Below the pieces are notes generated by a model. The model was not told where the DNA came from. It was given only the letters and a program-made list of their open reading frames with translations, and did no database searches. DNA of 32,000 bases. Source: Calothrix sp. 336/3. GTDB lineage: Bacteria > Cyanobacteriota > Cyanobacteriia > Cyanobacteriales > Nostocaceae. Both the position numbers and the translations under genes were made by a program. Location of the stretch: NCBI RefSeq assembly GCF_000734895.2, contig NZ_CP011382.1:690700-722699 (forward strand). The letters are read 5' to 3'. Shown piece by piece: positions 7,352-30,572 of this stretch (within the stretch, counting starts at the first letter, position 1; every line of letters starts with the position of its first letter).

Positions 7352-9283
7352 GTGAAATTTGTCGGACGTGATGAAGAACTGGAAGAACTCCATAAACTTT
7401 TGCAAGAAAATAACCAAGTAGCCATTGCAGCTATTTTGGGAATGGGTGGACTGGGTAAAACAGAACTCGCCTTGCAATATGCCATGACTCAGCGCGAAAA
7501 CTACAAAGGTGGACTGTGCTGGTTACAGGCGAAAGTTGAGGATTTTGGCGTTCAAGTGGTGCAGTTTGCCAGAACTCAGCTTGATTTAAAGCCACCAGAA
7601 GATTTTGATTTACCTACACAAGTACAATACTGCTGGCGGAATTGGCGTGAGGGTAATGTGCTGCTGGTTGTGGATGATCTCACAGATTATCAGCAAATCA
7701 GACCTTACCTACAGGGCGCATCTTCCCGATTTAAAGTGTTGATGACTACCCGCAAAAAGTTGGGTGCAGGCATCAAGCAATTATCTTTAGATGTATTACA
7801 ACCAGATGCAGCGTTGGAGTTGTTACGGTCTTTGCTGGCAGAAACACCAGGGCGAATTGAGAGAGAATTAGATGTAGCAAAACAGTTGTGCGAATGGCTG
7901 GGGTATTTGCCTTTGGGTTTAGAGTTGGTGGGGCGATATCTGGCGCGGAAACAGGATTTATCCCTCTCGAAAATGATGCAGCGTTTAGAGAAAAAGCGAT
8001 TAGAACAAGATGCACTGGACAAGCCAGATGCTGATATGACAGCACAACGCGGAGTGCAAGCCGCCTTTGAGTTGAGTTGGGAGGACTTAGCAGAGGATGA
8101 TCAGTTATTAGGCTGTGTACTCAGTTTATTTGCAACCGCACCCATACCCTGGAACTTAGTAGAACAGTGCCTACCAGACAAAGACGAGGAAGATTTAGAA
8201 AAAATTCGAGATAATAAGCTGCTGTATCTGCATCTACTCCAGCGCAAAGGTGAAGGAATTTATCAACTACATCCCCTACTGCGGGAATTTTTCCAATCTA
8301 AGTTTACAGGTTTAGAGCAAGCAGAGGAATTTAAGCGATCGTTTTGTCAGGTAATGGTAGCAGTTGCTAAAAAAATTCCTGAGACTCCTACCCTTGAAGA
8401 AATTAACGCTGTTTCCCTTGCCATACCACACATAGCTGAAGTAGCAAACAATCTCATTCAATATGTCAGTGATGAAGATTTAATTTGGCATTTCGTTGGC
8501 TTGGCTAACTTCTATGAGGGACAAGGGTTATATACCCAAGCCGAACCTTGGAGAAAACAGTGTTTATCAACAGTACAAAACCGCTTGGGAGACAATCACT
8601 CCGATGTCGCCTCCAGCCTTAACAATTTGGCATATCTCTACAATTCCCAAGGAAAGTACGATCAAGCCGAACCTTTGTTTTTCCAAGCTTTAGAACTCAG
8701 ACAACGCCTGCTGGGAGAAAATCATCCCGATATCGCCTCCAGCCTTAACAATTTGGCATTACTCTACAATTCCCAAGGAAAGTACGATCAAGCCGAACCT
8801 TTGTTTTTCCAAGCTTTAGAACTCAGACAACGCCTGCTGGGAGAAAATCATCCCGATGTCGCCACCAGCCTTAACAACTTGGCATTACTCTACTATTCCC
8901 AAGGAAAGTACGATCAAGCCGAACCCCTGTTTCTCCAAGCGTTAGAACTCTATAAACGTCTGCTGGGAAACAATCATCCCCTTGTCGCCACCAGCCTCAA
9001 CAACTTGGCATATCTCTACAATTCCCAAGGAAAGTACGACCAAGCCGAACCCCTGTTTCTCCAAGCTTTAGAACTCAGACAACGCCTGCTGGGAGACAAT
9101 CATCCCCATTTCGCCCAAAGCCTTAACAACTTGGCATTACTCTATAATTCCCAAGGAAAGTACGACCAAGCTGAACCCTTGTTTCTCCAAGCTTTGAATA
9201 TTTTAGAGCGAAGTTTAGGAGAGAATCATCCTAATACTGTGAGAGTGCGTGAGAATTTAGCAGATTTACGCGATCATCTCTAA
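7352..9283 (+). CDS. NB-ARC (STAND) NTPase with C-terminal TPR repeats (NLR-like)
   Basis: FVGRDEEL lead-in, P-loop GMGGLGKT, Walker B LLVVDDL, LMTTR, and a GLPL-like motif YLPLGLELVG. Six 42-aa kinesin-light-chain-type TPR units follow (NLAxLYxSQGKYDQAEPLFxQAL...LGxNHP). The only available start is GTG 7352, right at the NB-ARC boundary. Confidence 0.9.
   Translation: MKFVGRDEELEELHKLLQENNQVAIAAILGMGGLGKTELALQYAMTQRENYKGGLCWLQAKVEDFGVQVVQFARTQLDLKPPEDFDLPTQVQYCWRNWREGNVLLVVDDLTDYQQIRPYLQGASSRFKVLMTTRKKLGAGIKQLSLDVLQPDAALELLRSLLAETPGRIERELDVAKQLCEWLGYLPLGLELVGRYLARKQDLSLSKMMQRLEKKRLEQDALDKPDADMTAQRGVQAAFELSWEDLAEDDQLLGCVLSLFATAPIPWNLVEQCLPDKDEEDLEKIRDNKLLYLHLLQRKGEGIYQLHPLLREFFQSKFTGLEQAEEFKRSFCQVMVAVAKKIPETPTLEEINAVSLAIPHIAEVANNLIQYVSDEDLIWHFVGLANFYEGQGLYTQAEPWRKQCLSTVQNRLGDNHSDVASSLNNLAYLYNSQGKYDQAEPLFFQALELRQRLLGENHPDIASSLNNLALLYNSQGKYDQAEPLFFQALELRQRLLGENHPDVATSLNNLALLYYSQGKYDQAEPLFLQALELYKRLLGNNHPLVATSLNNLAYLYNSQGKYDQAEPLFLQALELRQRLLGDNHPHFAQSLNNLALLYNSQGKYDQAEPLFLQALNILERSLGENHPNTVRVRENLADLRDHL
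8486..9241 (+). repeat. tandem 126-bp (42-codon) TPR-coding repeats: one diverged unit plus five near-identical units (8612, 8738, 8864, 8990, 9116)
   Basis: Direct reading of the sequence. Units 8612-8737 and 8738-8863 differ at 3 of 126 nt. Confidence 0.9.
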
Positions 9284-15900: not shown

Positions 15901-18228
15901 ATGGTACAGCAACTAAATTCTTTTCCCCCCGCTTCAGTTCCAGATTCAAAAATTCCGACTTTGCGACAGTTTCATCATTTTCCCGATGATTGGCCCGATG
16001 AAAGTAGAATTGACTTGAATATTCATGATTTGCCCCATAATTCATCAACCTTAGAGTGGTGGTATGTAAATAGTCATTTCACAAGGGTTGATGGTAGAAA
16101 ATTCTCCTTATTTGCCTCCTTTTTTCGGATGATGATCAGCAAGGAGGAGGAAACAAAAGCAGCAAAATATGCCCATGCAATTATTTGGGGAATTAGTGAT
16201 GTTGAGCAAAAAAAATATTATACAGGTTCCTTACTAGATGCATCGGCTCCCGAAATTATCTTGAAAATCATTAATAGTGATAATTGTAAAGCAGATGGGA
16301 TGCTACGACGTGCTTTGCGGGAGGTATTAGAACAGGGAAAAATTCCCCAACCAGATGGCATTCTGCAAAGAGAAGTGTTAGTGAATTTGCAGAAGTTAGA
16401 GCTAGATTTTGATGGTAATCGCTTTGTCAAAATTCATGGTTGCGAGGATGAAAGAGAGTCAAATCATAGCTACCATTTGACTTTATTAGATAGGGAACAG
16501 GGGATTGAGTGTCAACTCTATTTCCATCCCCAGAAAGCAGCTGTGCGCCATGGGGATCAGGGTGTGGTGCGTGGGATTGCGGGGGAAGATATGTTTTACT
16601 ATTTTATCCCCCAGTGTCAGGTGGAAGGGATGGTAGTCATTGAGGGTGAAGCTCTTGGGATTACGGAAGGGGTAGGTTGGTATGATCATGAGTTTGGTAA
16701 GGGTGCTGCGGACACTTCCCAGTTAGATACTAAGCATGATATTGCCTGGAACTGGATATCAGCACAATTAAGTAACGGCTATCAGATAAGTGCTTTTGAC
16801 TTATTTGATCAAGAGAATCATGGTAAGAGTCATGGACGTTGGGCAGTAGTAATCGATACCAAGGGCAATTGGCAAACCTATGAAGAGTTTACCTTTCAGC
16901 CTGTGAATAGTTGGGTGAGTACACGGACTTTTAGTAGTTATCCAGTCAGATGGCAGTTGGAGATTCCCTTGGCAAATGTGAGTCTCGATATCACTGCGAC
17001 TTTTCCCAATCAGGAGTTTGTGACGATTATTTCCCGACCAGCATTTTGGGAAGGACGGGTGGATATTGTCGGGAATATTGGTGGTGAGGTAGTGGAGGGG
17101 CTAGGGTTTGTCGAGCGGACTGGTTTTGATGCGGTGGAAACCCTGGAAGGTTTTTTGCGTGCGGTGAGTCGGGAAACTCAAAAATCCATGCAGGAAATTT
17201 TGCCCCTAAATCCGACACAGGAGCAGCTGTGTCAGTTGGTAGCAAGTCCGGGGTATGAGCATTATCTGCAAGGTTTGGATACACAGCAATACTCCCAAGC
17301 GTTGATACAACCGATTCGAGAGATGAGCGATCGCGGTGGAAAATCTTGGCGTTCCTATGCTGCTCTTGTCTGTTTGCAACTTGTTGGTGGTAATTCCCAG
17401 GGATTAACCCATTGGTTAGCATGGCCCGAATTATTACACATTGGCTCTCTGATTGTTGATGATGTTGAAGATGGTTCGACTGTGCGTCGGGGGGGAGCAT
17501 CCTGTCATAGTATCTACGGGGAAGCTTTGGCAATTAATGCGGGTAATGCAAGTTACTTTTTGGGACAAATACTGTTACTGAATTCTCACCTGTCAGAGGC
17601 AGAAAAATTACAAGTCTATGAATTATATTTTACCACTTTGCGAGCTGCCCATGCAGGTCAAGCCATTGATATTCATGGTTTCCAGCACTTGATGTCTGGG
17701 ATGATTGAGCAGGGTAAGGGTGAATTGTTACAGGAAAGGGTTTTGGCAGTGCATCGCTTGAAATCGGCGGTTCCAGCTCGTTCTGTTGCGGAATTAGGCG
17801 CGATTTTAGGGGGGGGTACAAAGACTGAGATTCAAGCATTGGGGAACTTTTTTGAGTCCCTGGGGCTAGCTTTTCAAATTATCGATGATGTTCTCAATCT
17901 CAAGGGATTTGCGAATAATTTGAAATCCCAGGGGGAGGATATTTCCTGTGGCAAAATTACCCTACCCGTTGCCAAGGCAATTTCTAGATTACCTCTGCAA
18001 GAACAGCGTCTATTGTGGGAAACCATTGCAACTCAACCCAGGGAACCGGAAATTATTGCGGATGTGATTGGCAAATTAGAAAATTGTGGGGCGATCACTG
18101 CTTGTGAGCGACAAGCTGAGGAACTAGTTGAATCTGCTTGGCAACAACTTAATCCTCTATTTTCTGACTCAGATATGAAGGTAAGACTACGTGCTTTTAG
18201 CTGGTATGTTCTAGCTCGCCATTATTAG
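15901..18228 (+). CDS. fusion protein: N-terminal AttH/CrtC-like (lipocalin-like, carotenoid-hydratase family) domain plus C-terminal polyprenyl (GGPP-type) synthase domain
   Basis: The N-terminal half carries LEWWYVNSHFTRVDGRKFSLFASFFR and GVGWYDHEFG, which are AttH/CrtC hallmarks. The C-terminal half carries LHIGSLIVDDVEDGSTVRRGGASCHSIYGEALAINAGNASYFLG (first Asp-rich motif), AHAGQAIDI, LGLAFQIIDDVLNL (second Asp-rich motif) and EDISCGKITLP. It is collinear with eukaryote-type GGPP synthases. Confidence 0.85.
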   Translation: MVQQLNSFPPASVPDSKIPTLRQFHHFPDDWPDESRIDLNIHDLPHNSSTLEWWYVNSHFTRVDGRKFSLFASFFRMMISKEEETKAAKYAHAIIWGISDVEQKKYYTGSLLDASAPEIILKIINSDNCKADGMLRRALREVLEQGKIPQPDGILQREVLVNLQKLELDFDGNRFVKIHGCEDERESNHSYHLTLLDREQGIECQLYFHPQKAAVRHGDQGVVRGIAGEDMFYYFIPQCQVEGMVVIEGEALGITEGVGWYDHEFGKGAADTSQLDTKHDIAWNWISAQLSNGYQISAFDLFDQENHGKSHGRWAVVIDTKGNWQTYEEFTFQPVNSWVSTRTFSSYPVRWQLEIPLANVSLDITATFPNQEFVTIISRPAFWEGRVDIVGNIGGEVVEGLGFVERTGFDAVETLEGFLRAVSRETQKSMQEILPLNPTQEQLCQLVASPGYEHYLQGLDTQQYSQALIQPIREMSDRGGKSWRSYAALVCLQLVGGNSQGLTHWLAWPELLHIGSLIVDDVEDGSTVRRGGASCHSIYGEALAINAGNASYFLGQILLLNSHLSEAEKLQVYELYFTTLRAAHAGQAIDIHGFQHLMSGMIEQGKGELLQERVLAVHRLKSAVPARSVAELGAILGGGTKTEIQALGNFFESLGLAFQIIDDVLNLKGFANNLKSQGEDISCGKITLPVAKAISRLPLQEQRLLWETIATQPREPEIIADVIGKLENCGAITACERQAEELVESAWQQLNPLFSDSDMKVRLRAFSWYVLARHY

Positions 18229-18386: not shown

Positions 18387-18442
18387 TCCTCACTCCTCAC
18401 TCCTTACTCATTGTCCCTTACTCCTTACTCCTCACTCATTAC
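18387..18442. repeat. heptanucleotide STRR-like tract, 8 units (TCCTCAC/TCCTTAC/TCATTAC)
   Basis: Read directly. The tract ends 5 nt before the ATG at 18448. Confidence 0.85.
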
Positions 18443-18447
18443 TAACT

Positions 18448-19830: not shown

Positions 19831-20244
19831 GTGTCAGCGAAAGATATATTCCACAATGCGGCAAGATCTGCTTTAGAGAATGATGGCTGGACAGTTACAG
19901 AGCCATTATATTTAAGGTTAGGAGACGACCAGTTACGAATAGATTTGGCTGCTGAACGTATAATCACAGCAGAGCGCGCGCAAGAAAAAATAGCAGTAGA
20001 AGTAAAGAGTTTTCTAGGAGCATCGGCGATTACAGATTTCCATACAGCGTTAGGGCAATTTCTTAACTATAGGGCAGTACTACGTATACAACAGCCAGAG
20101 CGTCAACTATATTTGGCTGTGACAACAGAAATATATCGAACTTTTTTTCGTAGAGATTTACCCAAATTAAGTGTTCAAACTTACCAAATAAAATTATTAA
20201 TATTCGATCCAGTAACTGAGGTGATTGAACAATGGATAAATTAA
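19831..20244 (+). CDS. xisH: XisH family protein (fdxN-element excision controlling factor homolog)
   Basis: (GTG)SAKDIFHNAARSALENDGWTVT...IDLAAERIITAERAQEKIAVEVKSF...QWIN is collinear with XisH as I remember it. Confidence 0.9.
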   Translation: MSAKDIFHNAARSALENDGWTVTEPLYLRLGDDQLRIDLAAERIITAERAQEKIAVEVKSFLGASAITDFHTALGQFLNYRAVLRIQQPERQLYLAVTTEIYRTFFRRDLPKLSVQTYQIKLLIFDPVTEVIEQWIN

Positions 20245-20567
20245 ATCACTACCGTCAACTGATTCGTGAATGCCTGTTACCATATTTGGAAATGAAACCA
20301 TCAGGTGGAGAAATAGAAGTTTATAAAATGTTTGATACTGAGGACGACCACTATCAAATATTTCATGCTGGTTGGGATGGTTTTCAAAGAATATATGGTG
20401 CCGTGATACACATAGATATAATTGATGATAAGATTTGGATTCAATACGATGGCACAGAAGATGGTGTTGCGAATACTTTAGTGGAATTAGGTGTACCCAA
20501 GCAAGATATTGTATTAGCTTATCACTCAGCTTTTTTGCGCCAATATGATGGGTTTGCCGTTAGATAA
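20232..20567 (+). CDS. xisI: XisI family protein
   Basis: MDKLNHYRQLIRECLLPY...GEIEVYKMFDTEDDHYQIFHAGWDG...KIWIQYDGTEDGVANTLVELGVPKQDIVLAY. It overlaps xisH by 13 nt. Confidence 0.9.
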   Translation: MDKLNHYRQLIRECLLPYLEMKPSGGEIEVYKMFDTEDDHYQIFHAGWDGFQRIYGAVIHIDIIDDKIWIQYDGTEDGVANTLVELGVPKQDIVLAYHSAFLRQYDGFAVR

Positions 20568-22791: not shown

Positions 22792-24000
22792 TCACGTTGA
22801 TTTATTGCTATTCATCCGAGTTTGGCGATCGTAGTTACCCAACACTTTTGATGTGAGTCCAAAATCGGTGACAGCTAGAATTTTCATTTCGATATCGCCA
22901 GTATTTTGTGACTGGTGAATACACCATCGGGGAATAAACACCACATCTCCAGCAACCACTGAAATTAATTCATGGTCTATAAGTACTTGACCAGAACCTT
23001 GCAGGATATAAAATAGCGTTTCATGGGCATGGCGGTGCTTTTCATTATTTTTACCCGCAGGAATACTCACAAGCCGGGGATCTAAAACTTGGGTTGTGGG
23101 GAAGGAGAATCCGGCGACGGCAAACTCAATATTCAGATGAGGTACAGTATTATTATAGATTTTAGTCTCAGCTTGGGTAATATTACCCTTTAAATTACTA
23201 ATATCTCCTACTTGTTGCGCGAGAGATTTACGGTTTTTAATTGTACTAACTAGGGATGAATTAAAGCCTCCTGTTATCTGTTCATAGAGAGATTCAAAAA
23301 AATTAGCACGAGCGATTAAAGCGCGATCGCTAGCTTGTAGGCAAGTATCAAACCATTCTGGTATATCTTGGTAAGAACACATCATTTCTGTGAGAGTGGC
23401 TGCGTGTTCGTCATCACAACCGATGTGGATATGGAAAAATTCCAGTTCACTATCTGCAAACCCAGCTTGTCGCATTCCTGTTACCATAATTTGATACATA
23501 CGAGAGACAATCCCCTCTGTCCCTAGGGATAGCCATGCACAACCCCATAGTGGATCCGCTTGGATAGTATTTTGCAGATATAAATCGACAAATTCTTGAG
23601 TGAAGCTTTTAAATTTAATCTGAGTCAAATCATTGATAAACAGAGAGTTTTTCATAAAATTCCGAAAAATTTCGGCATGACTGACTCCACCATTTTCCCC
23701 ACTTTCTTCCCAGAGATTTTGAGTGAGTTTGGCACGAAATTGATCGCGATCGCAATTAGCCATGACTCCCGCAACATAGCGAGTAAAGTTTTTAGAATAG
23801 AGATAATACTGGGAAAAAATTTCGATAAAATCCTGTTTGGTTAATTCTCCTTGCAGACAAGCAGTGAAGAAACGATTTTGCCAAAAAGGATGATTCTCTA
23901 CAAAACTATGGAGTTTGTCTAATTGATGGTTGGTTTGCTCTGTAGTATTGAGTGAGGTTGACAGATGTAACATAAAATTTCTAGCTCCAAAATTTTCCAA
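22792..24000 (-). CDS. heme-oxygenase-like diiron oxidase (HDO) domain fused to a C-terminal cupin domain
   Basis: HDO ligand pattern NLWEESGENGGVSHAEIF (E...H), LGTEGIV (E) and HIHIGCDDEHA (H-x3-D-x2-H). Cupin motifs HRHAHETLFYILQGSG and GDVVFIPRWCIHQSQNTG. The track start is TTG 24000; ATG 23973 is the alternative. Confidence 0.75.
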   Translation of the reverse strand: MENFGARNFMLHLSTSLNTTEQTNHQLDKLHSFVENHPFWQNRFFTACLQGELTKQDFIEIFSQYYLYSKNFTRYVAGVMANCDRDQFRAKLTQNLWEESGENGGVSHAEIFRNFMKNSLFINDLTQIKFKSFTQEFVDLYLQNTIQADPLWGCAWLSLGTEGIVSRMYQIMVTGMRQAGFADSELEFFHIHIGCDDEHAATLTEMMCSYQDIPEWFDTCLQASDRALIARANFFESLYEQITGGFNSSLVSTIKNRKSLAQQVGDISNLKGNITQAETKIYNNTVPHLNIEFAVAGFSFPTTQVLDPRLVSIPAGKNNEKHRHAHETLFYILQGSGQVLIDHELISVVAGDVVFIPRWCIHQSQNTGDIEMKILAVTDFGLTSKVLGNYDRQTRMNSNKST

Positions 24001-28022: not shown

Positions 28023-30572
28023 TCACTTCACTTGAGAAAGCCAAGACTCCCTATCAATACGCTCGGCTATCGGGTGTTTAGTTGTTGCTCCAACTTCAGA
28101 TGTATCCATATGCCATCCTTGCCAAGTCTGCGCAGCCAGTTGAGAAAACTCACCTTTGACTTGGAAACAAGTAGGATTATCTTCTCTACTCCACAAACGA
28201 CAAAGCAAGTCTAATACTTTGTCCGAGGTATGATTACCCATGGGGTTAAGTTTGTCCTTGTTGGATTCAATTAATTTATCTTCTTCCTTAAACAACTTAC
28301 CCAGTCTCTGCTTAATACTGAAGTTACCTAGCTTATTGGAACATCTGCCAATATTGAAAAGTGCATCACAGATGCGGCGATTTAATCCTAAATATATTGC
28401 TCCTTTCAGTGCCTCTAGAAAATGTTCTAAAGCTTTGTTCGGCTCATTTTCAATTAGCAGTAAATATTCTCCATTTAGCAGGGAAATCTCCGAGAGAACC
28501 GCTTGGCAAAAACTTTGGCTGTGACCAAAGGTTAAATCAGTTTTCGCCAGTTGATCAGCGAATTTTAATGCCTGTTGTGGCAACTTATCTTCTCCTAGTC
28601 TCACCCAAACTCTTCCTGCTAAGGCTAACCAGCGAGATGCTCTGCGAGTTAAGCCAATACGTAAAGCGTAATGGGCTGCCCTAATAAAATATTCTGCGGC
28701 TTGCTCTAAGGTATCCCTATCATCACTCAGATAGAACTCAATTCGCCCAACATTCCCATAAATTTCAGACAAGGCTTGATAAATATCCAAACCAGGGTCT
28801 TTATAGCAAGAACCTAGTTTAATAACACGTCTAATTTTCTCATCCCATTCTTTTAATCCTAGCCACTGACTTCTCTTACTAGCTACAAATAAATCGGGAT
28901 TATGCCCACAGGAAAGCTCATATAAATACACTTCTGAGCGAATTAGAGCAAGTATGGGGATAATCTCTTCTTCTATTTCCTTATCCTTATCAATTTCTTG
29001 TTGAATTTCTTTAATTAGTAGTCGGGCATTACTAATATTGCCTTGGGTATTATAAAGTCTGAGTTCCAGGCGTTTTGCAAGAAAATAACAACGGTAGAAG
29101 TTAAGTCGATAGGAAAAATAAATCTTCTCTTGGGGGATTTTTTTTAATTCCTCCCTAGCTGTATCTGCAATTCTTTTAATTTCCCTAGAATTACATTCAT
29201 CACCCAGAAACTGAAATTTTTGAAAAGCTCTTCTGGCTCTAGTTAATTGTGCTCTTAATCCACAAAGAGCTTTAAATGCGGAATTATATACTTCTAAATC
29301 AAGTTCACCACTCCAGCTTTTATCTGCTAGCCATGACTTGGCACCACAAACTATGGCTTGCAAAATCGTAATCATGGAATCTCTATCAACCCAAATTCCT
29401 TGATAATGTCGTTGATGTCCTAGAATAACTGTGGTTTCAACTAGGGAATCAATACTGCTATCTAAGGTTTTTGTGAATAGAGTAATTTTACCTACCTCCT
29501 TGGTTAATCCCATATGGAGACTACAAGCACCAATGGCATTCTCAATCATTGTGTTGTTAGAGGTATACATCCATTCCAGATATTCAGTTGGTTTGTCATT
29601 ATGGCTAAAGCTACAGGTAACTACAGCCATCATTATGGGACTGCGGGAGTCAAAGGACTGCACTTCTGGTTGCGTTGTCAAGTAGATATCAGAAGTATTT
29701 AGTTCCCACTCTGCTTGATTTGCAATCTTGACAAAGAGGTCATAGACTGCTCCATATTCTGCTTGTTTACTAATAGACTGGGATAAAATTTGAAATTCTA
29801 ATTTTTCCACTCTCAGGTGTAGGTTAGTCGGATATTTAGGCATTTGCTCTTTAATTGCAATGCTCAGAAACAGTCCGATCGCCTCTTGCTGAGTGAAGTT
29901 TGTCTTACCTCCTGCTTTCAATCTGCTCCAGGTTCTTTGTAGTTTGTCAATGACTTCGAGTCGGAGCTTTAAACCCAACATGACGCTGAAACTGGAACTT
30001 GTCATCGGGTCGGATTTGCGCAGATTATCAATTAAATATTCGAGAAAATCATCCTCTTGATTCTCTCCAAAAAATTTTTTACTGGCAATGGCTATTTTAT
30101 TGCTGGCGATCGCCAAGAATTCTTGGGTTGTGGGCAGAAAATCTTCAAAACGCAAAAACTCCAGCAAGGCAACGACTTGAGCTACTTGAAAGAATCTTTC
30201 TGGTGTTATCCTAATAATATTATTGTTCTCTGGCAAAAAGCCCGCAGACTCCAGTAATTCATCAGAACCAATCTTTCCTAACAACTTCCGCAGTTCATCA
30301 GGAGTCAGATCTATTTCTCCTCTGGTTTTTTCACCATCGTTTTTAGACTTCCTTTTAGATACCTGACGACTTTGCAATTTGTTCCACAGTTCAATCAAAC
30401 CTTTTCTATCAACTGGCAATCTTTCCTTTTCCTTATTCAGAAAATCAATTACCACTGGTCGGCTAACATTCATCCCCTCCGAGAGTTCCACCTGGGTTGC
30501 TCCCATCTTGTCGAGAAAGAAGCGGAGCATCTCCCTCAGGGCTTCTTGATCTCCCACGTTTTCCCTGCTCAT
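28023..30572 (-). CDS. large (849 aa) orphan protein: N-terminal XRE-type helix-turn-helix, a central unknown domain, and a TPR-like helical C-terminal half
   Basis: HTH segment MGATQVELSEGMNVSRPVVIDFLNKE. The C-terminal half contains TPR-like helix pairs (e.g. EQAAEYFIRAAHYALRIGLTRRASRWLALAGRVWVRLGE and ALEHFLEALKGAIYLGLNRRICDALFNIGRC). There is no P-loop. The gene is visibly more AT-rich than the neighbouring core genes. Confidence 0.7.
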   Translation of the reverse strand: MSRENVGDQEALREMLRFFLDKMGATQVELSEGMNVSRPVVIDFLNKEKERLPVDRKGLIELWNKLQSRQVSKRKSKNDGEKTRGEIDLTPDELRKLLGKIGSDELLESAGFLPENNNIIRITPERFFQVAQVVALLEFLRFEDFLPTTQEFLAIASNKIAIASKKFFGENQEDDFLEYLIDNLRKSDPMTSSSFSVMLGLKLRLEVIDKLQRTWSRLKAGGKTNFTQQEAIGLFLSIAIKEQMPKYPTNLHLRVEKLEFQILSQSISKQAEYGAVYDLFVKIANQAEWELNTSDIYLTTQPEVQSFDSRSPIMMAVVTCSFSHNDKPTEYLEWMYTSNNTMIENAIGACSLHMGLTKEVGKITLFTKTLDSSIDSLVETTVILGHQRHYQGIWVDRDSMITILQAIVCGAKSWLADKSWSGELDLEVYNSAFKALCGLRAQLTRARRAFQKFQFLGDECNSREIKRIADTAREELKKIPQEKIYFSYRLNFYRCYFLAKRLELRLYNTQGNISNARLLIKEIQQEIDKDKEIEEEIIPILALIRSEVYLYELSCGHNPDLFVASKRSQWLGLKEWDEKIRRVIKLGSCYKDPGLDIYQALSEIYGNVGRIEFYLSDDRDTLEQAAEYFIRAAHYALRIGLTRRASRWLALAGRVWVRLGEDKLPQQALKFADQLAKTDLTFGHSQSFCQAVLSEISLLNGEYLLLIENEPNKALEHFLEALKGAIYLGLNRRICDALFNIGRCSNKLGNFSIKQRLGKLFKEEDKLIESNKDKLNPMGNHTSDKVLDLLCRLWSREDNPTCFQVKGEFSQLAAQTWQGWHMDTSEVGATTKHPIAERIDRESWLSQVK

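Follow-up and report, generated by a model that had tools for sequence, protein, structure and literature searches.

To our knowledge, all known chimeric prenyltransferase (PT)-terpene synthases carry an alpha-helical cyclase, and nearly all of them are fungal. Isoprenoids are also modified by an all-beta family, AttH/CrtC, whose characterised isoprenoid-acting members, CrtC, kievitone hydratase and Hgs, carry out the acid-catalysed hydration of a trisubstituted carbon-carbon double bond (C=C), which yields a tertiary alcohol. Hgs, the archaeal AttH-like synthase of hydroxylated glycerol dialkyl glycerol tetraethers (hydroxy-GDGT synthase), does so at double bonds in C20-derived isoprenoid lipid chains. 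For CrtC, mutagenesis identified Asp268, in the context H264-x-Y266-x-D268, as essential and as the proposed proton donor to the C=C (PMC4717167). Here we describe a gene in a 32,000-nucleotide stretch of the Calothrix sp. 336/3 chromosome (contig NZ_CP011382.1, positions 690,700 to 722,699, forward strand; hereafter the window) that fuses an AttH/CrtC-like double beta-barrel to a trans-prenyl diphosphate synthase, representing a new chimeric architecture from two known families. Our favoured reading, which we give about an even chance, is that of a cytosolic bifunctional enzyme which builds the scaffold in a so far uncharacterised pathway to a terpenoid glycoside or glycolipid.

The gene is a single, uninterrupted open reading frame (ORF) with an ATG start and a TAG stop, encoding 775 residues (aa), and the protein is 100% identical to the database entry 'polyprenyl synthetase family protein [Calothrix sp. 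336/3]'. Three Pfam domains are present, all above their curated cut-offs: the CrtC N-terminal lipocalin (PF07143; 62.7 bits against 22.5, E 9e-17), Lipocalin_9 (PF17186; 84.9 bits against 26.2, E 7e-24) and polyprenyl_synt (PF00348, aa 467-723; 151.2 bits against 27, E 4e-44). No Terpene_synth-type Pfam match was found in the protein. Compared with the sequences of PDB entries, the N-terminal half recovers AttH NE1406 (2ich, 6e-19) and kievitone hydratase (7a0q, 3e-8), and the C-terminal half many geranylgeranyl diphosphate (GGPP), farnesyl diphosphate (FPP) and long-chain prenyl diphosphate synthases. An earlier interpretation made from the letters of this DNA (the sequence-only reading) had proposed these very two domains, and profile, sequence-to-structure and fold evidence confirm them; the motifs it quoted, EWWY, WYDHEF, DDVED, DDVLN and G515/S516, all lie where it had placed them. 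The N-terminal leader is probably disordered as judged from the predicted structure, and no hydrophobic signal-peptide-like stretch was found in its 27 residues. The G+C content of the gene, 0.42-0.47, does not stand out from that of the other coding sequences of the window, and composition therefore gives no evidence of recent transfer.

The fusion is far beyond chance and is neither a frameshift nor an assembly artefact. More than 120 full-length homologues (49-63% identity) bear the same three domains, and a scan of one genome per GTDB species found relatives in 516 genomes, whose phyla include Cyanobacteria, Bacteroidota, Myxococcota and Acidobacteriota. The best 80 of these 516 loci comprise about 32 from Myxococcota, 24 from Bacteroidota (Spirosoma, Telluribacter, Chitinophaga, seven Flavobacterium species and Saprospiraceae among them), 6-7 from Cyanobacteria and 5 from Acidobacteriota. 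An exhaustive HMMER search over 1.84 billion cluster representatives returned 458 50%-identity clusters at E <= 1e-30, the majority of them complete fusions ~740-800 aa long, with identities as low as 26%; short matches to the N- or C-domain only, which may be stand-alone genes or truncated metagenomic ORFs, were not used as evidence. Streptomyces virginiae has an annotated divergent member. Identity to the Calothrix protein reaches no more than 62-63% in its nearest relatives, and proteins from Cytophagales (57-59%) nearly match the other cyanobacterial ones, a near-equality which suggests a sporadic distribution and transfer of the fusion between phyla. Hence the fusion, which had been called unusual, is so in being uncharacterised, but it is not rare: it is common across several bacterial phyla and, as described below, reaches a diatom. 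Seven loci (L031, L037, L047, L048, L061, L062 and L071) come from metagenome-assembled genomes (MAGs) with implausible taxon labels (Enterobacteriaceae, Klebsiella pneumoniae, Bifidobacteriaceae, Rhizobium); these have a G+C content of 0.59-0.70 or carry cyanobacterium-like proteins at 62% identity, and the labels are probably binning or labelling errors.

An AlphaFold2 model of the fusion, built on a 102-sequence alignment, has a mean predicted local distance difference test (pLDDT) of 90.6 and a predicted template modelling score (pTM) of 0.90. Residues 1-20 are modelled as disordered, ~45-407 as nearly all beta and 415-775 as all helical, the connecting region forming helices at 415-433, 440-447, 450-456 and 461-477 with pLDDT ~90 and being conserved in two homologue alignments. 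Because a pTM of 0.90 is reached for a two-domain chain, the model predicts a defined interdomain geometry, the two domains being packed in a fixed, confident relative orientation rather than strung together loosely. In a Foldseek search of the PDB, the barrel comes closest to 2ich (E 4e-20, TM 0.83 over the target), followed by kievitone hydratase of Nectria haematococca (7a0q/7a0t; E ~1e-16, TM 0.78 over the target) and, more weakly, by 25-phosphosteroid lyase (9fzn/9g4c; target TM 0.48-0.52); the helical half matches many trans-prenyl synthases at TM 0.75-0.89 over the target. A two-helix insertion in the barrel, at aa ~116-143, is conserved and is not present in AttH. Separately, an acidic insertion of ~8 residues (GCEDERES; aa 178-190, nt ~16432-16470) occurs in the Calothrix protein, being missing from all 23 other aligned homologues, and a local dip of pLDDT to ~61 is seen there.

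Conservation was assessed in a close alignment of 102 homologues (49-63% identity) and in a divergent set for which 55 clusters (50% identity) supplied one representative each, sharing just 24-48% identity with the query; counts are given out of 56. In the barrel, invariant positions of the close alignment are H46, the EWWY motif (E52, W53, W54, Y55), F74, F75, Y233, Y234, W260, Y261, D262, E264, F265, W283, W285, Q289, Q371, E372, F382-W-E-G385 and E405. The divergent members retain W54 (55 of 56), and S340 and E372 are near-invariant as well. At position 262, 40 members of the divergent set have D, 15 have E and one has N, which makes it acidic in 55 of 56. We regard D262 as the putative general acid and the counterpart of the catalytic Asp268 of CrtC, the pairing of D262/W260 with D268/Y266 being made via the W-x-D of AttH and kievitone hydratase and the published CrtC pattern. 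With regard to His239 and Trp241 of CrtC, an invariant F232-Y233-Y234-F235 stretch ~27-29 residues before D262 is aromatic and holds no His. The second barrel bears W283-N-W285, Q371-E372, F382-W-E-G385 and E405; indeed, all residues common to AttH and kievitone hydratase are kept (W-x-D-x-E/Q-F/W, W-x-W, QE, (F/Y)WEG and the C-terminal E).

Could the barrel instead be a non-catalytic lipid binder, which takes the product and speeds its release or hands it over to the membrane or a glycosyltransferase (GT) in an FBN5-like manner? Lipid binding is the classic role of the lipocalin/calycin fold, AttH is without demonstrated activity, its structure paper suggesting just a role in lipid metabolism (PMC2954199), and the lipocalin-like fibrillin FBN5 provides a precedent with plant solanesyl diphosphate synthases (PMC5507956). 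The rigid packing predicted for the two domains would moreover suit product hand-over. Passive binding does not, however, need the conserved polar and acidic residues common to kievitone hydratase, nor would it explain the near-universal acid at position 262, and we consider such a binder improbable. Because of this conserved acid and of the gene context described below, we favour a catalytic role of the barrel over passive sequestration.

In the synthase domain, the first aspartate-rich motif (FARM), DDVED, occupies aa 520-524 (nt 17458-17472), and within the segment G515-S516-L-I-V-DDVED both G515-S516 and the FARM are invariant in the 102 homologues, confirming the small residues that the sequence-only reading had noted at positions -4 (S516) and -5 (G515). 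It aligns with 'ASLLIDDIED' of human GGPP synthase (GGPPS) without an insertion; relative to plant type-II GGPPS, the two-residue insertion of the FARM is missing and the alignment takes a 2-aa gap. The collinear stretches run LHNASLLIDDIEDNSKLRRG..HSIYG..INSANYVYFLG..LHQGQGLDI in the human enzyme and LHIGSLIVDDVEDGSTVRRG..HSIYG..INAGNASYFLG..AHAGQAIDI in the fusion, so that Y552/F553 and H584 match the 'YF' and 'H..GQG' of human GGPPS. The human 'VYF' position is chain-length-limiting in type-III enzymes, and Y552 and F553 are kept in more than 90% of the divergent members. The second aspartate-rich motif (SARM) is of the type-III-like DDxxN form; its N666 is invariant in the close clade, the divergent members having N in 32 and D in 22. 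Basic residues, as expected for the binding of isopentenyl diphosphate and diphosphate, complete the picture, namely GGKSWRS at 479-485, RRG at 529-531 and the conserved K621 and K685, all invariant in the 102 homologues. Invariant overall in the close alignment are K481, R484, H513, D520, D521, D524, R529, R530, Q587, D590, K621, D662, D663, N666 and K675; in the divergent set the synthase catalytic residues are 98-100% conserved, FARM, SARM, GGKxxR, RRG and Lys remaining near-invariant to 24% identity. Both catalytic centres are thus under selection, being conserved down to ~25% identity.

The assignment to type III, which the sequence-only reading had put forward as eukaryote-type, stands at the level of motifs. 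Searched by itself against the PDB, the FARM and chain-length region has no top match outside type III (GGPPS of human and further animals, yeast BTS1, PT domains of fungal chimeric terpene synthases), and the residues at -4/-5 and the SARM agree. The whole C-domain, however, matches the plant type-II GGPPS 5e8h best (1e-21; human GGPPS 2e-16), and divergent members can carry DDxxD, so 'eukaryote-type' is here a description of motifs, not established as ancestry. As to the accompanying claim that the domain does not resemble CrtE-type enzymes, the NCBIfam CrtE equivalog NF045685 scores 76.6 bits against a cut-off of 460. The best NCBIfam partial matches are encapsulin-cargo polyprenyl transferase and archaeal IdsA, and as no NCBIfam equivalog is reached at cut-off, no curated functional name is transferable. 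The alignment of Y552, F553 and H584 with the positions that limit chain length in type-III enzymes makes C20 GGPP the most likely product length.

Next, gene neighbourhoods were analysed for the best 80 loci and the window (81 in total), with ORFs seeded on the fusion, filtered on the difference in G+C content between third and second codon positions (GC3-GC2) and clustered by BLASTP; annotation covered clusters recurring in at least 3 of the 81 loci, singletons being only partly annotated. In the window, a 377-aa lipid GT of the GT28/monogalactosyldiacylglycerol (MGDG)-synthase-like type lies 219 bp downstream of the fusion gene on the same strand. Its PDB matches include plant MGDG synthase 1 (4wyi, 2e-16) and a processive diacylglycerol glucosyltransferase (9wde), both of which glycosylate a lipid hydroxyl. 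Neither a terminator-like site between the two genes nor an above-background promoter signal around them was found, and the Rfam scan returned no regulatory RNA near the genes, just a distant tRNA. Within the 219-bp spacer, directly upstream of the GT start codon, lies a TCCTTAC repeat resembling cyanobacterial sequences of the short tandemly repeated repetitive (STRR) kind; it may not be part of the system.

A GT28-like gene adjoins the fusion in 9 loci (the window and 8 others) from two phyla. Relative to the window, the GT/fusion identities are 67/62% in Iningainema, 57/59% in Spirosoma and 49-52/52-55% in Chitinophagaceae and Telluribacter, and because GT identity tracks fusion identity, the pair has been inherited as a unit across phyla. 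A wider gene set recurs in the closest clade, comprising, besides the GT28-like GT, an LMF1-like polytopic membrane protein, an FkbM methyltransferase, two cytochromes P450 (P450s), a GT1 UDP-glycosyltransferase, an FAD_binding_4 oxidoreductase and an APH/EcKL-type kinase; at least one gene of the set is present in 10 of the 11 most similar loci. Telluribacter and Chitinophagaceae have the order GT28-fusion-LMF1-(FkbM)-P450-P450, with a gap of 13-21 bp from GT to fusion. Upstream, mevalonate genes are found directly adjoining the fusion in a few loci. L012 (7257-9522) and L017, both from Chitinophagales, have 3-hydroxy-3-methylglutaryl-CoA (HMG-CoA) reductase together with a GHMP kinase of the mevalonate-kinase-like GYDIA family; L016 has the kinase only and L034 (Myxococcales) the reductase only.

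Two further neighbours were observed. An LMF1/LMF1_C protein of ~760 aa lies directly downstream of the fusion in L005 (12254-14548) and six other loci (cluster c7), the hosts being Spirosoma, Telluribacter, Chitinophagaceae and one cyanobacterial MAG; we know of no function for bacterial LMF1-like proteins. In eight high-G+C loci of Myxococcota type, a protein of ~210 aa follows the fusion with a gap of 0-1 bp (cluster c5; L013:12299-12907). It has no Pfam or NCBIfam match, and its position suggests a translationally coupled, lineage-specific partner. Residual ORF miscalls are possible in high-G+C loci, which makes the Myxococcota neighbour clusters c5 and c6 less certain.

Larger fusions extend the same theme. 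Metagenomic proteins P0159 and P0169 have the order GT1-CrtC-Lipocalin_9-PT, and megaproteins of ~1500 aa (P0156, P0162, P0268, P0275) the order Sulfotransfer_3-GT1-CrtC-Lipocalin_9-PT. A 1528-aa member (P0272) from the transcriptome of the sea-ice diatom Synedropsis sp. CCMP1620 (MMETSP/EukProt) is likewise arranged as sulfotransferase-GT1-CrtC-Lipocalin_9-polyprenyl synthase, so that the family crosses kingdoms. Because GT and sulfotransferase are fused to the same core, we see strong evidence that the core makes a hydroxylated lipid, to which a sugar and, in certain lineages, also a sulfate group is subsequently added.

A hydroxylated and glycosylated isoprenoid could also be a carotenoid, the protein being a Rosetta-stone fusion of CrtE and CrtC and the neighbouring GT glycosylating a 1'-hydroxy-carotenoid, as in the glycosides of myxol or OH-gamma-carotene. 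The Pfam CrtC domain and the adjacent GT would fit, and carriers of the fusion belong to phyla (Cyanobacteria, Bacteroidota, Chloroflexota, Myxococcota) that make hydroxylated, glycosylated carotenoids. Yet crtB, crtI and crtY (phytoene synthase, desaturase and lycopene cyclase) were not found among the clusters recurring in at least 3 of 81 loci, the synthase falls far below the CrtE cut-off mentioned above, and the barrel is nearer to AttH than to CrtC or kievitone hydratase. Furthermore, three or more other enzymes would act between the CrtE and CrtC steps, a poor fit with a rigid fusion, neither the P450, FkbM and sulfotransferase partners nor the diatom megaprotein look like carotenoid biosynthesis, and cyanobacteria use CruF/CruG for such chemistry. 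We therefore hold a carotenoid fusion to be highly improbable.

Aggregated, the data are consistent with the following sequence of events for the favoured bifunctional enzyme. Since its motifs are intact, the C-terminal domain would condense isopentenyl diphosphate (IPP) onto an allylic primer in a Mg2+-dependent manner, most likely giving C20 GGPP. The barrel would then take the prenyl chain, D262 protonating a trisubstituted isoprene C=C and water quenching the resulting tertiary carbocation to a tertiary alcohol, as suggested by homology, because the characterised isoprenoid-acting members of the fold family do so; it may simply hydrate GGPP. Finally, the MGDG-synthase-like GT would glycosylate the hydroxyl of the product, as its co-inheritance and the GT fusions of relatives indicate. 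In other lineages the core may be decorated by P450s, GT1, FkbM methyltransferase, kinase or sulfotransferase, with Calothrix possessing a minimal two-gene version. No characterised or described member of the fusion was found in the full-text literature, with subscription journals outside its coverage, in agreement with the sequence-only reading, which knew of none.

Several observations weigh against this sequence of events. The substrate, chain length and barrel reaction of every member are inferred, as are the double bond attacked, water quench as opposed to cyclisation, and the fate of the diphosphate. The N-domain is nearer to AttH, whose function is unknown, than to the proven hydratases, with 16% identity to kievitone hydratase, and the CrtC tetrad is partly mapped, equivalents of His239 and Trp241 not being identified (no direct CrtC alignment). 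Small residues at -4/-5 also fit products longer than C20. With respect to gene context, there is no universal neighbour, a GT lying within 10 kb in 17 of 81 loci (23 loci have short flanks), and Myxococcota and Flavobacterium have loci without tailoring genes. Neither a phosphatase nor a class I synthase recurs in the neighbour clusters, leaving the fate of the diphosphate unexplained.

This last gap would be accounted for if the barrel were a metal-independent C-O lyase or allylic hydrolase at the diphosphate end, by analogy with 25-phosphosteroid lyase, converting GGPP to a tertiary allylic alcohol (geranyllinalool-like) or an alkene that is then glycosylated. Foldseek does recover this lyase as a relative of the barrel, and APH/EcKL-type kinases adjoin the fusion in three loci. 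A tertiary-alcohol diterpene with P450s and two GTs would also parallel the hydroxygeranyllinalool glycoside pathways of plants. 25-Phosphosteroid lyase itself and a kinase of the phosphotransferase family act in tandem, the alcohol concerned being a tertiary isoprenoid one (PMC8449060). Against this, the structural match is weak in comparison with those to AttH and kievitone hydratase, sequence-level similarity to the lyase was not detected, and a kinase neighbour is rare (3 of 81 loci), making such an activity distinctly unlikely.

Alternatively, the barrel might be a protonation-initiated, class-II-like terpene cyclase, in which D262 protonates the terminal C=C of nascent GGPP and the cation is captured by neighbouring double bonds to yield a cyclised prenyl diphosphate or alcohol, a counterpart, in bacteria and diatoms, of the fungal PT-cyclase chimeras in another fold. 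The initiating chemistry would be the same as in CrtC, whose authors draw a comparison with squalene-hopene cyclase (PMC4717167), and the barrel is lined by invariant aromatics able to stabilise carbocations (W53, W54, Y55, F74, F75, Y233, Y234, W260, Y261, W283, W285, F382, W383). The domain order, N-terminal modifier and C-terminal type-III-like PT, is as in the fungal chimeras, and P450, GT and methyltransferase neighbours are typical of cyclic terpenoid gene clusters. On the other hand, terpene cyclisation is not known for any protein with the AttH/CrtC fold, the characterised ones hydrating or eliminating, and the partner GT resembles enzymes acting on acyclic membrane lipids. Sequence alone cannot tell cyclisation from a water quench, and we consider a cyclase unlikely.

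The broader notion that the barrel has a chemistry new for its fold and serves a pathway to an undescribed lipid class is tentative and well short of even; the same low expectation attaches to the forms that such novel chemistry might take when permanently joined to a GGPP synthase, namely cyclisation started by an acid or a lyase/hydratase reaction at the diphosphate that needs no metal. If true, there would be a widespread cross-kingdom family of glycosylated diterpenoid lipids, chemically undescribed, spanning Cyanobacteria, Bacteroidota, Myxococcota, Acidobacteriota, Streptomyces and diatoms, and sulfated, methylated or oxidised in some of them. A GGPP synthase-barrel chimera in bacteria and a diatom would add a new fold among enzymes acting on nascent prenyl chains and provide a concrete biochemical context for the large, mostly unannotated AttH family (COG 'predicted secreted hydrolase'). 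The data point to undescribed terpenoid glycolipids in heterocystous cyanobacteria, soil Bacteroidota, myxobacteria and sea-ice diatoms. The Calothrix module of fusion and lipid GT is small enough for heterologous reconstitution, and regio- and stereoselective hydration of an unactivated C=C is of interest for biocatalysis.

The features of the locus are collected in Table 1.

Table 1. Features of the fusion locus; positions count from the first nucleotide of the window.
Feature	Position	Strand	Basis
Complete fusion gene, AttH/CrtC-like double beta-barrel followed by trans-prenyl diphosphate synthase	15901..18228	+	ORF, three Pfam domains, AlphaFold2
N-terminal leader, aa 1-27	15901..15981	+	pLDDT <50 for aa 1-20; variable, gapped in homologue alignment
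Double lipocalin-like beta-barrel, AttH/CrtC/kievitone-hydratase type, aa ~28-410	15982..17130	+	Pfam, Foldseek, phmmer, secondary structure
EWWY motif of first barrel, aa 52-55	16054..16065	+	Aligned to AttH 'EWWYV'
W260-Y261-D262-H263-E264-F265	16678..16695	+	Aligned to AttH WLDREW and kievitone hydratase WYDRQW
Lipocalin_9 second barrel, aa 282-408	16744..17124	+	Pfam E 7e-24
Helical connector and N-terminal helices of the prenyl synthase fold, conserved, aa 415-466	17143..17298	+	
Trans-prenyl diphosphate synthase domain, aa 467-775, type-III-GGPPS-like motif architecture	17299..18225	+	Pfam, PDB matches, Foldseek
G515-S516 (positions -5, -4), then FARM D520-D-V-E-D524, no insertion	17443..17472	+	Sequence; alignment to human GGPPS
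S551-Y552-F553	17551..17559	+	Aligned to 'VYF' of human GGPPS
SARM D662-D-V-L-N666, type-III-like DDxxN, aa 662-666	17884..17898	+	Sequence
Heptamer tandem repeat TCCTTAC, ~8 copies, 76% matches	18387..18443	.	Tandem Repeats Finder
GT28/MGDG-synthase-like lipid glycosyltransferase, 377 aa	18448..19581	+	Pfam Glyco_tran_28_C, PDB matches

Otherwise the window consists of unremarkable cyanobacterial chromosome, with FtsH, TonB, an NB-ARC/TPR protein, XisH/XisI and ChlB. The GT is followed directly downstream by an overlapping XisH/XisI pair (19831..20567, +; Pfam E 2e-52 and 2e-42), and an NB-ARC ATPase fused to a long TPR array, STAND/NLR-like, is encoded at 7352..9283 (+). On the opposite strand, a 402-aa ORF (22792..24000, -) combines Haem_oxygenas_2 (iron-containing redox enzyme) with a C-terminal Cupin_2, and an 849-aa ORF (28023..30572, -) has no Pfam match at E <= 1e-4.

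Among known systems, CrtC of Rubrivivax gelatinosus and Thiocapsa roseopersicina shares with the fusion the Pfam CrtC domain and the proposed equivalences D268 = D262 and Y266 = W260, and the psi-end of its natural substrate and the omega-end of geranylgeranyl chains are chemically identical. Unlike the fusion, CrtC is stand-alone and found in photosynthesis or carotenoid clusters, whereas no carotenoid genes were found among the recurrent neighbours of the fusion. Kievitone hydratase (7a0q/7a0t) and AttH NE1406 (2ich) have the same two-barrel fold (TM 0.78-0.83) and share W-x-D-x-(E/Q)-(F/W), W-x-W, QE, (F/Y)WEG and YP with the fusion, but they are stand-alone proteins of ~330-350 aa, 16-21% identical and without the two-helix insertion; the substrate of the former is a prenylated isoflavonoid, and the latter has no known activity. 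Hgs is, like the barrel, an AttH-family enzyme genomically coupled to a substrate-supplying enzyme; it differs in being archaeal and stand-alone and in acting on a membrane tetraether. In 25-phosphosteroid lyase and its 25-hydroxysteroid kinase, a distantly related barrel works at a tertiary isoprenoid side-chain carbon with a kinase partner, a pairing echoed by the kinases beside some fusion genes; it belongs, however, to a catabolic steroid pathway, and the fold match (TM ~0.5) comes without detected sequence similarity.

On the synthase side, the type-III GGPPS of human (GGPS1, 2q80) and yeast (BTS1, 2dh4) resemble the fusion in lacking a FARM insertion, in their small residues at -4/-5, in the DDxxN of the SARM and in the collinear HSIYG..IN..N..YFLG and H.GQ..DI. 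The fusion departs from them in having ~18-24% identity to any solved enzyme and in the 410-aa barrel at its N-terminus. The fungal chimeric PT-terpene cyclases (PaFS, PvCPS and the astellifadiene, stellatatriene and variediene synthases) likewise combine chain synthesis and a modifier in one polypeptide, with the modifier N-terminal and the PT C-terminal, and their PT domains are among the best PDB matches of the FARM region. The resemblance that the sequence-only reading had drawn to these chimeras, with a different partner domain, is hence borne out in the shared order, the type-III-like PT and the barrel partner. In contrast to the fungal enzymes, the hosts are bacteria and a diatom, and the partner is an all-beta AttH/CrtC double barrel instead of an alpha-helical class I or class II cyclase; a fungal-type class I cyclase domain with DDxxD and NSE/DTE was not found, the N-domain being all-beta. 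Fungal chimeras are known for flexible linkers, while the interface predicted here is rigid. Because the partner fold is entirely different, the fusion is a functional analogue of the fungal chimeras and not a member of their family.

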